Virus record (IMG/VR): IMGVR_UViG_3300024259_000012 | Length of the DNA stretch: 64,000 nt | Direction: 5' to 3' (one strand) | Source: a virus | Shown here: positions 34,331 through 53,166 of the stretch, piece after piece | Layout: each line of letters begins with the position of its first letter | Position numbering within the stretch: position 1 is the first letter of the stretch | Position numbers and translations under genes: made by a program | Notes under the pieces: model-generated | What the model was told of the DNA's origin: nothing | What the model saw: the letters and a program-made list of their open reading frames with translations, nothing else | Database searches by the model: none

Positions 34331-34377
34331 CTCTCTCATTACGCTATTAAGTTAATACTATACAAGGTTCCTGTCAA
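34331..34377 (-). promoter_or_regulatory. Early promoter/leader cassette copy 6
   Basis: TTGACA-17-TAACTT-aatAGCGTAATGAGAGAGG. Confidence 0.85.
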
Positions 34378-42852: not shown

Positions 42853-43990
42853 TGCAATACCAAATACTTGAAGAATCAACAAGGGGCGAACTTACAAGAA
42901 CGGTCACGTCGTATATTAAGTCTGGTTGGTTTCCACTGGGCGGCGTATCAGTTGCCGCCATTAATAGTATGATGAGCCTACACTTTTTCCAAGCAATTGT
43001 AAAAGATGAAAGTAGTTAGCGGATATCACGTAGGATATCGAGGAAACTTTTATAGCCTACCAACGTATGAGGACGCCAAGGCAAAGTGGGCATCCCTATG
43101 GTTAAAGGATGATTCTTATATTGGGAGATGTCGGATTGGAAGCGGAACATATAATATTATGTATGGCGTTGCAACGGTGGTTGACCATAAATTGGTAGAC
43201 TTTAAAGAACTCGTTCCAAATAATTTAGATTATAAACTGCACCGGATTGAAAGGAACACATAATGATAGATTTAATTTTTAAAATATTAGTTACATCCGT
43301 TTTTGTATTCGCAGTTATTACAATTATGTCCATAAGTTATGTGGGCGAGAAGTGGTATACGTCACCGGTTACATATGCATATCTTACCGGCGCAAGCTTT
43401 GTTGGTATGTGGATGTATGCACTTTGGTTTTTATCATAAGGAGATAAGATGCAAATCAATCCAAAAGAACGAGAGATTAGTAGAAATGTACTTGACCTCA
43501 AAATTGCTATACAAGATGCTATTGACGATTTGTGTAAGGAACATAAATATGAGCTTACATACGCAGAGATATAAGAAATAAAAAATATAAATAATATAAA
43601 AAAAGCCTTGCAATAGGCGATTTTAATGTTATATTGGTAGTACGTTAGAAAAGCAAGATAAACTATGCGTTGATTCAGACCCTGAACAGTAATGTTGGAT
43701 ATGAATTAAAAGACATGTGGAAGGAAAAAGAATAATGATAAATAACTTACATGGTAGAGTAATATGGTCACTCGTGTGGCCAACCTTAAAATTTATATTC
43801 GGCATGGCAATTGTCTTAGGATTTATGTTGTTGTGTTTAGCATTTCCGACTATAATAGGTTGGATAGTATTTGTAATATTCCTTCTCTTGGGTGCCTTGG
43901 AATTGTATATCGTATATGATAAGAAATACAAAGAATTTCAGAAGGCTGATGAAAGGCTTAGGGAATCTATAAACTCAGATTGGAAGGAAT

Positions 43991-49149: not shown

Positions 49150-49225
49150 TATTTTACCTATATCAGTATAATTTTTTTCCCAGCAAAAATTTCGTCCGAT
49201 GTATGCACACGACTTAAACCCAGGA

Positions 49226-49404
49226 TAAAACTCTTTTTAGTTTTATGAGGCCGACTTATTGTACCGCCCCCTTCGAGTTTTATGTATGGGAGTTTTAAGT
49301 TTTATGTTTGAGAGTTTTATGTTTGGAATTAAAACTCTTTAGAGTTTTATGTTTGGCGTCCTGCCATGTATAGTTATATGTATGTATAGTTATATGTATG
49401 TATA
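49226..49404. repeat. Iteron-like GAGTTTTATGT(TTG) repeats and a 16-nt tandem repeat
   Basis: About 6 AGTTTTA(T) copies plus inverted TAAAACTCT copies; ATGTATAGTTATATGT twice. Confidence 0.75.
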
Positions 49405-50295
49405 TAAAAAAAGGCCACCCGAATGGATGACCTTATAAGGCGGCGTTGTGGCGTCGTACTATTGAGACGCCATTTCGAATAGCTTATCAATCAGGGGCTT
49501 CTGCATGAAGTACACAAATAGAGCACCCACTGCGAACCCAGTCATAAAGCCTATGGCGATGTCTTCAAGATTTTTCATTATACTAACTCTCCGTCCTTAT
49601 TGATTACACCCTCTGAATACAATACGTGCATAACGAATAGCTCACGGGTGTCTGTTGAGTAGACGCCGCCCATATTGTATATATATACCGTTTGTGTTAA
49701 ATCCTTCATGTGTATTCCTTTTATTTTTATTTGTATCCGATTCTATAATACGCCGTGATGGCGAGCTATTCAATATAGTTCAGATTCATAGACCTTACGA
49801 CCGAGTAGCTTCTCAAGGCGTTTCCATTCAGCCTTCAATTTACGGAGCCTCGCCATGGCTCGGGTCTTACTAATCTCCCCATCCATATAAAGGTTCTCAG
49901 GAGACATCTGATTTAACAGATTCTCAAAGGGCGTCATATCGCTTGGATACTGATGTTCGTTGTGCATGTCAATCATGGCGTCGCTCATTTTACTCATTTG
50001 GTGCTCCTCAATTGTGGGTTAACAGAATTCCATAAAGACGCCCTTACGATAGCGTCCTTCTTATAGTGCTCAAAGTCCACAAGTGCCCCGTGAACGCCGA
50101 TGCGTGTATCTACTATATCCCAGCCCTGTCCGGATTCGGTCTTGCGTACAATGTAATTGGTGGTGCTCATTTATGCACTCCTAAATTTTGTGTTTTCTTT
50201 ATATACCCAAGTGTTTCCGCAAATGAAAACTCCACCCTTAGCATTCCAAATTCCAAAGGTTGCTCCAAGGTCATATTTCTGTCCGTCGATTAACT

Positions 50296-50727
50296 TCATG
50301 CGGTCACCTCATAATTTCTGTCCCAACGTCCAACATTAACATTGACATACCAGCCAACGTGGAAGTAGTCAGTCATCGCATCAGACTCATCAAAGTTCTC
50401 ACGGCTCGTATTTGCGCCGTTCAGGATTGGTAAGACCTCAGCGAAGAACGCCTTGGCCTCTCCATCATACCAACGGTCAGTATGGAAGATGTTCACTTGG
50501 TCTCGTGTGGCGTCCTGATATTGGGCGTCGCTCCCATAACGGCGTTTGGTTAGTATCCTGCCCATGCGGTTGTAAGACTCCATGAAATCTATCTTGCCAC
50601 TGAATAGATTCAGTACTAAGACACTGTGGTGGTTAACACCCAGACGCCCCTTCACTCCATACTTCTTCAGGATGGGCTTCAGGTTGGCGTTGATTTCCTT
50701 CTTATGCTCTTGGGTCATGTAACTCAT
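50296..50727 (-). CDS. Conserved phage early protein
   Basis: D.SD.MTDYF..GWY.....G.W...Y; stop TGA overlaps next ATG. Confidence 0.75.
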   Translation of the reverse strand: MSYMTQEHKKEINANLKPILKKYGVKGRLGVNHHSVLVLNLFSGKIDFMESYNRMGRILTKRRYGSDAQYQDATRDQVNIFHTDRWYDGEAKAFFAEVLPILNGANTSRENFDESDAMTDYFHVGWYVNVNVGRWDRNYEVTA

Positions 50728-50737
50728 TTGTATCTCC

Positions 50738-50956
50738 CTATCTGTATAACGTTACGAAGCTACCGAAGTAGCCTTCAAAAGTTTCAACCAAAGTCTCATA
50801 ATCTCCAGCAGTCATCTCAGCCAATACCACTTCGGCGGGCAAATCCAATTGCTTAGCAAGCTTCTCAGCCATGCCAATCAAATAGAAGGCGTTTCCCTGT
50901 GGACCGGTCAGGTCGATTGACAACTCCTGCTTTAACTCTGTTACTGATTTCATCAT
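50738..50956 (-). CDS. Conserved early protein (GPQGNAF family)
   Basis: IDL.GP.GNAF.L.G...M..GDY..L...F...FG. Confidence 0.75.
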   Translation of the reverse strand: MMKSVTELKQELSIDLTGPQGNAFYLIGMAEKLAKQLDLPAEVVLAEMTAGDYETLVETFEGYFGSFVTLYR

Positions 50957-50965
50957 CGTGGGTTC

Positions 50966-51011
50966 CTTTCCCTTACGCTACCAATATAATGATATACAAG
51001 GGCGGTGTCAA
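50966..51011 (-). promoter_or_regulatory. Early promoter/leader cassette copy 9
   Basis: TTGACA-17-TATATT-ggtAGCGTAAGGGAAAGG. Confidence 0.75.
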
Positions 51012-51036
51012 GCATTAAAATAAATAAATAAAAAGC

Positions 51037-51445
51037 TTGCATATGCGCCTCCTGGATGTTAACTTACAAGGCTATACTGCTCGGCAAAAATAAAGTCTGG
51101 TATATCCCAGAAGGTAACCCTGGCGTCGCACAAAGTCAAGCTAATTCTTTTCTTTATTTAGTGCTTGACATTGGCGTTGTAGAATGTTAACTTAGAGGAG
51201 TGAGGGAGCGAAGGGTGCCCAACGGGGAAGGTCGTCTCGTCTAAAAAAACTTATAAGACGACAGGGGGCGTTAGGCGCACTCTCTCCCTCACACTATAAT
51301 ATAACATGCGGGACGCCCATATGCAAGGGAAAAGAAAAAGCTTGACATTGGTGCCGTGGCGTCTTAACTTACTATGCTATGGTGGCTGAAAAAAATCAGG
51401 ACGCCTATAGCCTTTTAAGTTAAGCACCAGGTGGCACAATGTCAA
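51037..51445. promoter_or_regulatory. Three face-to-face sigma70-like promoter pairs
   Basis: -35 boxes at 51037(+)/51139(-), 51165(+)/51326(-), 51342(+)/51445(-), each with a 17-nt spacer and TAACTT/TATATT/TACCTT. Confidence 0.75.
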
Positions 51446-51702
51446 GCTATTTATTTTCTTTTTTCGTGTGTTTAATAGAAGCTAAGTGTTCAAAGGCTGA
51501 AGGCGTCCCACTATCCAATAGCACATATGGTGGCGGCTGGGAAGAGCATGAGATTGGAGACATTGTAACCGTTGGTCTTCAAACTGTTAGAATAAAGGAC
51601 TTAAACACCGGCGTTGTATATGAAAGTATAAAGGACGCCGCTAAAGACTTGGGGCTAACCAGTGGCATCGTTGGAAGTCGTAAACAGTTTCTACGGATTT
51701 AG
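51439..51702 (+). CDS. NUMOD1-like DNA-binding domain protein (start uncertain)
   Basis: V...DLNTG.VYESIKDAAKDLG. Confidence 0.5.
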   Translation: MSSYLFSFFVCLIEAKCSKAEGVPLSNSTYGGGWEEHEIGDIVTVGLQTVRIKDLNTGVVYESIKDAAKDLGLTSGIVGSRKQFLRI

Positions 51703-51883
51703 CTTGTATATATGTATATTCGTATGTATATTCTGCCTGCCTAAGAGACGCCTCATGAGCGTTTCGACTCAGGGGCACCCGCATGAGGCGGAGAGTATAA
51801 AGCCCAAGAGAAGAGTGAACTCCGGCGTCGCAAGGCGTCGGACTCACTTAATAGGAATCAAATGAAATATTATGGAGTGGTCA

Positions 51884-52489
51884 TTAGCTACGGTTAAAAA
51901 GGTCAATCAGACGACCGCCAAGCTCTTCCATCATATCATCCCCAGAAGGGGTGTCCTGCTCCAGAACGCCTTCAGTAGATATCTCCTGTTTGGGCGTCTC
52001 AAACCTCTCAAGCCTGTTGTGCTTATGTTTACGCTTGCGGGTTCATTCCATGAAGTAACAATTCAAACAAAGCATTTCCAAATTCTCGGCGGCGTAGTTC
52101 TTTTCGTCGTTGTCCTTGAAGGATAGCATAATAGGCATCTTGCCGTCGTGCTCTCTTGTCTCCTCATATCCACACGAATTACAACACATAGCTAACTTGC
52201 CCTCACGTAGCAATTTGAGGCCGAATTTGACGTGCTCAGGACGACCTGGGATGGCGGCACCGGTTCAGTGCGTCTTCCTTGTACGGGCTATTCCTGCTGA
52301 CGATTTATTCGGCGTTCAAATTTCGTATCTTATAGCGTATTTGCGAAACGTAACGTAGGCGACGCCAAGATACTCAGCCGCCTGTTTCATCGACTCAGTG
52401 TGCATAATGGCCTCTTGGCAGTCCTTAAATGGGATTGGTTTGTGTCGGTATGGGTCGTGACCCTTACTTCATTTAGATGTGTTTTCCAT
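51884..52489 (-). CDS. HTH + HNH-like zinc-binding protein, 201 aa, four in-frame TGA read as Trp; absent from ORF track
   Basis: SMKQAAEYLGVAYVTFRKYA..YEI*TPN...CNSCGY...R..DGKMPIML.FKD.D..NY..ENL.MLC.NCYF; TGA at 52469, 52316, 52265, 52043; no TGG. Confidence 0.88.
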
Positions 52490-52490
52490 A

Positions 52491-52601
52491 ATTAAAACTC
52501 TCCTTTGTTAAAACTCTACATAAAACTGGTGGGACGCCTACATAAAACTCTACCTATAACTCTGTAGTTTTAATTCCGGCGGAAAAGAGTTTTATGTTTG
52601 G
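52491..52601. repeat. Second iteron-like cluster (TAAAACTCT), mostly inverted relative to the 49.2-kb cluster
   Basis: TAAAACT(CT) four times plus GAGTTTTATGTTTG. Confidence 0.75.
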
Positions 52602-52723
52602 GCAGGTGCCTTTCTTCATATATATAGGTATATATATTGTACCCTTATCTATACAATAAGTATCAGCGTACCAAGAAATGCCACTAAAGGCGTTCTATTG
52701 GCGTTCCATGGCGGCGTAATGAT

Positions 52724-52927
52724 TCACCAAGACTTGGGTTCCATTGGCAAATTGTTGACCTCCCCAATGGATACCGCTCGCTTCATCAATTCAGGACACC
52801 CCTCACACATATTATATAATTCATTCAATACAAGCCACTTATCTCCGGCTACTAAATGCAAGTTGCGGCGTCCATTCAATGTAACACAGTAGTTCTCGCC
52901 TTTTATAATTTTGTATTGTCGGTACAT
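52724..52927 (-). CDS. YKQY microprotein 27
   Basis: MYRQYK...CVTLNG. Confidence 0.75.
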   Translation of the reverse strand: MYRQYKIIKGENYCVTLNGRRNLHLVAGDKWLVLNELYNMCEGCPELMKRAVSIGEVNNLPMEPKSW

Positions 52928-53166
52928 TATGTGACTTGAATAAAAGCTCGGGCGTTCAGGCGTTCTTCAAAGTCCTTGACTGTTATCATTTCAAACGTCG
53001 GACCATAAATACAACCATCATTGGGCGCACGAAACCAAGCTACTTCATTGTTCATGTACAGCCGCTTGCCATTCATCCAGATGCATTTTTTATTTTTGCA
53101 CTTGGAGCATAATTGGTATTGTTTGTACCTTATAGTGCTTCGTAACGAAGATTGATTATTAAACAT
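52927..53166 (-). CDS. YKQY microprotein 26
   Basis: RYKQYQLCSKC...CIWMNG. Confidence 0.75.
   Translation of the reverse strand: MFNNQSSLRSTIRYKQYQLCSKCKNKKCIWMNGKRLYMNNEVAWFRAPNDGCIYGPTFEMITVKDFEERLNARAFIQVT

Follow-up and report, generated by a model that had tools for sequence, protein, structure and literature searches.

A gene-free, mirror-symmetric stack of early promoters in a large marine phage and its possible role as a transcription-primed replication origin

Introduction

Convergent promoters that lie tens of base pairs apart and whose polymerases interfere with each other are known from several phages, among them pR/pL of 186, Pe/Pc of P2 and Pant/Psar of P22. These pairs head genes, as in the lysis-lysogeny switch, or direct an antisense RNA at a particular gene. 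Beside the replication start of ColE1, convergent transcripts likewise overlap and form strong hairpins; RNA I and RNA II are synthesized there, and a G-rich RNA segment stabilizes a persistent hybrid. The primer transcript of ColE1 is long, its antisense RNA is terminated and its RNase H site is defined. Interference between convergent promoters has been treated in general (PMC5001618).

Two further systems are found in T4-type phages. Promoter-early stem-loop (PeSL) cassettes (Arbiol et al. 2010, PMC2839356; Comeau et al. 2014, PMC4122927) are repeats of an A/T tract and a sigma70-like early promoter that are scattered through a plastic region of small orphan genes. Each cassette heads an ORF and contains an upstream terminator stem-loop, often polyG/polyC, and genes are gained or lost between relatives at the cassettes. 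The T4 origins oriF and oriG consist of a promoter and an unwinding element and are primed from an R-loop, and oriE combines iterons with a promoter of the early mode (PMC3016281).

The locus described here lies in an uncultivated marine phage of ~146 kb. An initial annotation of 64 kb of its DNA (the whole stretch analysed, hereafter the window) had pointed to six near-consensus promoters that form three face-to-face pairs without enclosed genes, and to a seventh, at 51011, that faces away. An RNA polymerase sponge, a transcription-activated origin, a DNA-entry element and a source of complementary small RNAs had been offered as possible roles. Early-promoter cassettes that are repeated, phage origins that depend on promoters and promoters that face each other are already known separately; we found no earlier description of eight promoters that are stacked in mirror symmetry at fixed spacing, conserved and free of genes.

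The phage and its relatives

The window, with a GC content of ~40%, represents the accessory or early part of a large phage. Besides numerous small orphan ORFs it contains 8 tRNA genes and the genes for a glucosyltransferase, a NAD-dependent DNA ligase and a pair of RNA ligases of the T4 type. Neither the 50,697 phage records nor IMG/VR contained a close relative, and a DNA search of positions 50700-51800 against the 50,697 phage records yielded no match. Identical copies of the protein that neighbours the array occur on at least 23 marine-metagenome contigs, the longest of which is 146 kb. Independent assemblies of the same phage (JGI, ENA, Logan) rule out an assembly artefact: five agree completely over 861 bp, and a sixth does so over 423 bp. 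The samples that carry the phage are JGI 3300024339, 3300024299 and 3300022902, SRR7624270 and the runs underlying ERZ27250242 and ERZ27250255.

A single diverged relative was detected, L087, a 2.5-kb contig with ~68% DNA identity and a neighbouring protein that is 82% identical. A third relative was located through its HTH-HNH protein (P0071, 67% identical). Another contig from the same sample as L087, L122, proved to be unrelated coding DNA. Scans for the patterns of the promoter unit and of the central conserved block gave no match in IMG/VR, one chance match without homology in the JGI metagenomes (L090) and 37 single chance matches without homology in GTDB genomes. The array is absent from 80 IMG/VR loci that contain a homologue of the neighbouring gene (at most 47% identical), to which a loose promoter-cluster screen was also applied that turned out to be too unspecific for use. 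At two loci with a neighbouring protein of 37-40% identity (L032:5200-6000 and L061:5800-6000), repeated promoter and leader cassettes of their own occur just upstream of the homologous gene. Those of L061 include a back-to-back pair, and both loci are without a gene-free palindromic array.

Architecture of the promoter array

The array consists of eight copies of the phage's own early promoter, which is of the host sigma70 type, arranged mirror-symmetrically and free of genes as four back-to-back bidirectional cassettes. It is situated between two early transcription units that read outwards. The halves of each back-to-back pair have a short A/T tract in common, and the pairs are PL1/PR1 (51011/51037), PL2/PR2 (51139/51165), PL3/PR3 (51326/51342) and PL4/PR4 (51445/51704), the last of which is split by ORF87. 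The six sites that face inwards and the one at 51011 that faces away are present exactly as originally reported, and the distances between the facing -10 boxes of successive cassettes, given there as about 45, 100 and 45 nt, were measured as 45, 104 and 46 nt. The inner six promoters form three facing pairs with nothing to express between them, and genes are headed by the outermost two promoters only, PL1 and PR4. That no genes are enclosed is correct for the intervals, but ORF87 starts under the last inward-facing promoter, such that plus-strand transcripts could read into it.

The unit TTGAC(A/T)-17-TA(A/T)(C/A)TT heads ~10 other genes of the window and in every case precedes a conserved leader, A-[AG]-TAGCGTAATGAGAGAGG, and a start codon. 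A weight matrix was trained on the -35 and -10 regions only of eight leader-bearing promoters outside the cluster; the seven sites of the cluster scored 12.1-24.2 bits, compared with 18.2-23.9 bits in the training set. Within 506 bp, seven matches reached at least 12 bits and six at least 15 bits, against 0.04 and 0.006 expected from 1000 Markov simulations with the same dinucleotide make-up. The whole window contains 20 matches of at least 15 bits, six of them within a 435-bp stretch, and the probability of six or more, calculated from the window's own promoter density, is 2.4e-9. The leader TAGCGTAATGAGAGAGG... was seen after the early promoters at 34377(-), 33687(-), 31639(-), 24194(-), 46197(-), 58708(+) and 60850(+), among others, and is better conserved than the promoter spacer.

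All seven sites have a spacer of exactly 17 nt and an upstream A/T tract, as had been stated. The description as near-consensus is appropriate for the -35 hexamers (TTGACA in four sites, TTGACT in one, TTGCAT in two) but not for the -10 hexamers. The latter contain the invariant A2 and T6, yet TAACTT agrees with TATAAT at only three of six positions and a generic E. coli-type scan accepts the site at 51011 alone. TAACTT is the -10 sequence preferred by the gene-heading promoters of this phage.

At the left end of the array, PL1 (50983-51011, minus strand; TTGACA-17-TATATT; 17.1 bits; orthologue at -650 in L087) carries the standard leader (GGTAGCGTAAGG...) and heads a 72-aa gene (50738-50956) and a 143-aa gene (50296-50727). 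It shares a 25-bp, UP-element-like A/T tract (51012-51036), which is longer in L087, with PR1 (51037-51065, plus strand; TTGCAT-17-TAACTT followed by ACAAGGCTATAC; 16.4 bits; L087 +719). The 45 nt of interval 1 (51066-51110) between the facing -10 boxes are without a stable or conserved fold. A weak terminator-like hairpin with a T-run (51096-51111, minus strand) is the sole structure of its kind within the array and is missing from L087. PL2 (51111-51139, minus strand; TTGACT-17-TACCTT; 12.1 bits) is the weakest unit and is likewise missing from L087; it is 85% identical to the PL4 unit over 34 nt (repeat D2). PR2 (51165-51193, plus strand; TTGACA-17-TAACTT; 23.5 bits; L087 +784) and PL3 (51298-51326, minus strand; TTGCAT-17-TATATT; 15.7 bits; L087 -951) face each other across the centre, and the sequence downstream of PL3 resembles the standard leader. 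On the right, PR3 (51342-51370, plus strand; TTGACA-17-TAACTT; 20.0 bits; L087 +976) and PL4 (51417-51445, minus strand; TTGACA-17-TAACTT; 24.2 bits; L087 -1079) enclose interval 3 (51371-51416). The outer right promoter, PR4 (51704-51732, plus strand; TTGTAT-17-TATATT; L087 +1105), is back to back with the PL4 orthologue in L087.

A leader and a ribosome site are present on every gene-heading copy and absent from the inner promoters. A GGCTAT-type initial sequence follows PR1, PR3, PL4 and, in degenerate form, PL2, and occurs nowhere else in the window. The promoter units are paralogues, as revealed by repeats (D1/D2), inverted repeats (I1-I4) and an identity matrix. Positions 51012-51478 form an imperfect palindrome of ~470 bp centred at ~51245. 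Aligned over 202 columns, its arms have 76% identity and score 135, versus 36 +/- 6 for shuffled arms. The whole stack is palindromic because each cassette is itself symmetric.

The central hairpin and the intervals

The long inverted repeat that had been noticed in the middle interval is real. It is an imperfect palindrome (I11, 51200-51292) that can form a 93-nt rod-like hairpin from either strand, composed of an outer stem GTGAGGGAG/CTCCCTCAC, a mid stem around CGTTAGGC, an internal loop with G-runs, an apical stem TCGTCT/AGACGA and an A7 loop. The predicted folding energy of 51199-51294 is -43.6 kcal/mol (z -5.1) for the plus strand and -44.6 kcal/mol (z -7.5) for the minus strand. L087 has a hairpin of the same shape, with -33.7 and -43.0 kcal/mol. 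When transcription starts are placed 6-8 nt after the -10 box, those of PR2 (~51200) and PL3 (~51291) coincide with the two bases of the hairpin, and those of the outer pairs are ~32 nt apart. The DNA directly downstream of PR2 and PL3 is the G+C-rich hairpin itself. No intrinsic terminator was found for either central transcript, and the region 50000-52500 contains no Rfam match at E <= 1.

The hairpin arms look exchanged between the two phages: the left arm is closer to the reverse complement of the L087 right arm than to the L087 left arm, and the reverse is likewise true. The G-runs of the internal loop accordingly lie on opposite strands in the two phages, the minus strand in L087 and the plus strand here. 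The comparison of these two sequences is suggestive only, but the element may tolerate inversion and may even undergo it.

Small ORFs inside the central interval were considered as genes and rejected, since they are completely different in the two phages. The 45/46-nt intervals do not possess hairpins as a conserved feature: interval 3 folds with -14.6 kcal/mol here and weakly in L087, and interval 1 is unfolded.

Conservation of promoters and spacing

L087 retains PL1, PR1, PR2, PL3, PR3, PL4 and PR4 in unchanged order and orientation, that is, six of the seven matrix-detected sites and the eighth promoter. It lacks PL2, the 72-aa gene and ORF87. The two phages are identical at 65 of 72 hexamer positions (90%; 86% for -35 and 94% for -10) versus 59 of 102 spacer positions (58%; Fisher p = 2.7e-6). 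Identity is 74% over the 12 nt past the -10 box and falls to 31%, the chance level, over the following 12 nt. The orthologous outer interval, interval 3, measures 46 nt in both phages, and only its terminal GCTAT.../...ATAGC repeats are conserved, whereas the central 24 nt are unrelated (about 30-33% identical). Interval 1 is not orthologous and measures 45 nt; the other two comparisons of interval centres reach 52% in one orientation. The differences between the phages, namely the 72-aa gene, ORF87, the PL2 unit and a membrane gene, fall at cassette boundaries.

The initial annotation had named conservation in relatives as a check, and the promoters are indeed kept in L087 with a clear footprint. 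What is conserved, judged from the aligned sequences, is the polymerase-binding sequence and the spacing, and most of the transcript sequence is not. This pattern therefore points to a transcription-dependent DNA element and argues against conserved RNA products of the outer pairs. We consider it highly probable that the promoters are functional elements under selection.

Flanking genes, iterons and other context

Compared with L087, ORF87 (51439-51702, plus strand, 87 codons) is inserted and splits the fourth cassette. Its product has a weak likeness to the NUMOD/I-TevI DNA-binding domain (E 9e-4, below the Pfam cut-off), and it is probably a remnant of a homing-endonuclease insertion. Behind PR4 lies a conserved non-coding leader or RNA (51738-51866, plus strand); in L087 it is followed by the gene for a small membrane protein, which the present phage lacks. 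Identity of the stretch to L087 is ~85% in the first ~88 columns, compared with ~68% in the surroundings, and three of its predicted pairs show compensatory changes; it has no Rfam match. Positions 51704-51866 are a candidate structured leader or small RNA. The adjacent HTH-HNH-like gene (51884-52489, minus strand) contains four in-frame TGA codons; at codon 149, the one checked, L087 has TGG, which is consistent with TGA being read as tryptophan.

The array lies within a stretch of 3.3 kb whose GC content, 45.5%, is the highest in the window. This module is bracketed by two arrays of GAGTTTTATG-like iterons, each with a TA-rich tract, at a distance of 1.0-1.9 kb from the promoters. The repeats of the left array (49224-49413; repeats 49224-49351) are mostly forward and those of the right array (52493-52662; repeats 52493-52596) mostly reverse, so that the two are inverted relative to each other. 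The iteron motif has 14 matches in the window, versus 6.7 +/- 2.5 expected, and 10 of the 14 are in the two arrays; in IMG/VR the iteron pattern gave 51 chance matches and 0 homologous ones. The adjoining TA tracts are the fifth and sixth least stable 50-mers of the 64 kb, and the promoter array is not among the 25 least stable. The bracket of iterons and TA tracts has a pattern that resembles an origin or the ends of a transposon. No DnaA-box cluster was found. GC skew tracks gene orientation in the window, and the main switch in transcription direction is at ~58 kb and not at the array.

Two further features concern the promoter family and its surroundings. At 43572-43660, an 89-bp cassette of A/T tract and promoter lies within a gene between 5-bp AGATA repeats, and its in-silico removal restores one reading frame; promoter cassettes of this family therefore seem insertable. 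The hexamer GGCGTC/GACGCC is ~17-fold enriched around the array (23 of 44 window copies within 49300-53000, including three promoter spacers). It was rejected as part of the element, as the homologous array of L087 is not enriched in it.

Discussion

The promoters of this locus resemble PeSL cassettes in their repeated A/T tract and sigma70-like early promoter, in their distribution through a plastic region of small orphan genes, in the gain and loss of genes between relatives at the cassettes and in the evidence for cassette insertion. They differ from them in that six copies head nothing, alternate in orientation at fixed short distances and are conserved as a whole array. Instead of a stem-loop in each unit there is the one weak hairpin at 51096-51111. 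With the convergent pairs of 186, P2 and P22 the locus shares promoters tens of bp apart, between which polymerases would interfere; unlike those, its three pairs have no enclosed or targeted gene, and the genome appears to be lytic and T4-like. Strong hairpins in the predicted overlapping convergent transcripts and a G-rich segment are reminiscent of ColE1, whose long primer, terminated antisense RNA and RNase H site are further features of that system. An antisense pair such as P22 sar or ColE1 RNA I is not seen either: there is no terminator, no target gene in the overlap and no Rfam match.

The likeness to T4 origins consists of promoters of the type used by host polymerase, the combination of early promoter and iterons as in oriE and the position between divergent units, in a phage that shares with T4-type phages accessory genes such as those for RNA ligases and a glucosyltransferase. 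In T4, however, a single promoter is followed by A+T-rich DNA, whereas eight promoters in facing pairs and G+C-rich central DNA are found here. No A+T-rich unwinding element directly follows the promoters as in oriF and oriG, and the iterons, in contrast to those of oriE and of iteron origins, flank the array at 1.0-1.9 kb, next to the TA tracts.

We tentatively propose that the array acts in cis, as a DNA element working through transcription itself, and that a transcription-primed bidirectional start of replication would be its most probable function; the proposal is one of several that the sequence permits. The facing promoters are orientated correctly for priming both leading strands, and together with the bracket of iterons and TA tracts this makes an origin the first choice. 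An origin is also favoured because in T4-type phages origin firing is the best-documented role in which transcription itself is the function. According to this model, host RNA polymerase would fire from each face-to-face pair and synthesize two short overlapping transcripts per pair, from starts ~32 nt apart in the outer pairs and from the bases of the 93-nt hairpin in the centre, where one of the two transcripts would be rich in G-runs. The transcripts would remain annealed or be processed and would then prime two leading strands that depart in opposite directions. Within the same 3.3-kb module, the flanking iterons may serve for protein binding and the easily melted TA tracts for unwinding. 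Rather more doubtful is whether the locus exemplifies a new origin design, in which facing pairs of host-polymerase promoters ~46 bp apart and a central pair on the bases of a G-run hairpin would prime both leading strands at once; such an origin would be symmetric, tolerant of inversion, independent of primase and bracketed by iterons.

Several observations argue against an origin. The comparison involves a single diverged relative of 2.5 kb, and the transcription starts are predicted. The central promoters are followed by G+C-rich DNA in place of an A+T-rich unwinding element, and the array ranks outside the least stable stretches. The iterons lie outside it and no DnaA-box cluster was found. 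GC skew simply follows the genes, and the main switch in transcription direction is located elsewhere. T4 origins need a single promoter, against eight here. Moreover, the cassettes appear able to insert and duplicate, a process that can build arrays without function.

This last point leads to a reading that was absent from the initial annotation and is nearly as likely as an origin. Bidirectional cassettes without a function of their own may have accumulated by duplication or insertion at the divergent control region and now feed the flanking operons; the plus-strand promoters would add to transcription of ORF87 and of the conserved leader with its gene, the minus-strand promoters to that of the 72-aa/143-aa operon, and the palindrome and hairpins would be by-products of a repeated symmetric unit. 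The paralogy of the units (D1/D2, I1-I4), the position of the L087 differences at cassette boundaries, the frame restored on removal of the cassette at 43572-43660 and the leader-like sequence downstream of PL3 all agree with such an accumulation, as does the failure to find a strong intrinsic terminator between the promoters and the outer genes. PeSL cassettes of T4-type phages behave likewise (PMC2839356), and in distant relatives, too, promoter-leader cassettes are repeated close to the homologous gene. Transcription that runs head-on across 430 bp, however, should reduce the output of the outer genes. A mere pile-up also does not account for the inner promoters being without the leader and ribosome site of the gene-heading copies, for the confinement of the GGCTAT-type initial sequence to the array within the window, or for the lengths of 45/46/46 nt, which are kept in spite of an unrelated centre (~30% identity between interval 3 and its L087 counterpart) and thus indicate a constraint on spacing. 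Less probably, the array gives rise to complementary small RNAs, in which case the central pair would form two mutually complementary rod-like hairpin RNAs of ~95-110 nt. These might serve as double-stranded RNA or as regulators whose CU-rich 3' arms could pair with purine-rich leaders of early mRNAs. Both phages have a hairpin that is stable whichever strand forms it; its ends are conserved, the predicted starts are at its base, and the likeness of the PL3 downstream sequence to an early leader means that the opposite transcript bears the complement. Neither central transcript has an intrinsic terminator or a match in Rfam, though, and the changes between the phages are one-sided or whole-arm swaps and not pair-by-pair compensations. 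The mini-ORFs inside are not conserved, and the outer intervals, devoid of conserved sequence or fold, would leave four of the six inner promoters unexplained. For the outer pairs, the origin and the sponge among the four roles originally listed fit better than small RNAs; the central hairpin might nevertheless be an RNA.

The sponge itself, in which packed and mutually blocking promoters of high affinity would hold host polymerase and titrate it as genome copies rise, is unlikely. It would explain why the hexamers and the spacing are conserved and the transcripts are not, and why there are no encoded products, and with predicted starts ~32 bp apart two open complexes would clash. Yet six sites add little to the 14 other sites of at least 15 bits in the 64-kb window, and the -10 sequence TAACTT is a poor match to the general consensus. 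We know of no precedent for a polymerase trap made of a promoter array. Least probable is that the array is a decaying relic, with promoters left unselected after gene loss, or a DNA-entry signal through which transcription pulls the DNA into the cell. Genes have been gained and lost around the array, as a relic would lead one to expect, but hexamers conserved to 90% at ~68% overall DNA identity, and the identity of five assemblies over 861 bp and of a sixth over 423 bp, speak against decay. An entry signal would need a single direction and the end of a genome; the initial suggestion of this role finds no support in an array that is internal, symmetric and bidirectional.

Replication origins are unknown for almost all large uncultivated phages, and even for T4-type origins it is only partly understood how bidirectional starts arise. 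Should the array be a cis-acting element of the kind proposed, it would represent a clear case of promoters that serve as DNA-mechanical parts and not as gene switches, and it would provide a sequence signature by which such elements could be found in metagenomes. Should it be only a pile-up of cassettes, it would document their multiplication and persistence in a marine lineage far from the coliphages that carry PeSLs.
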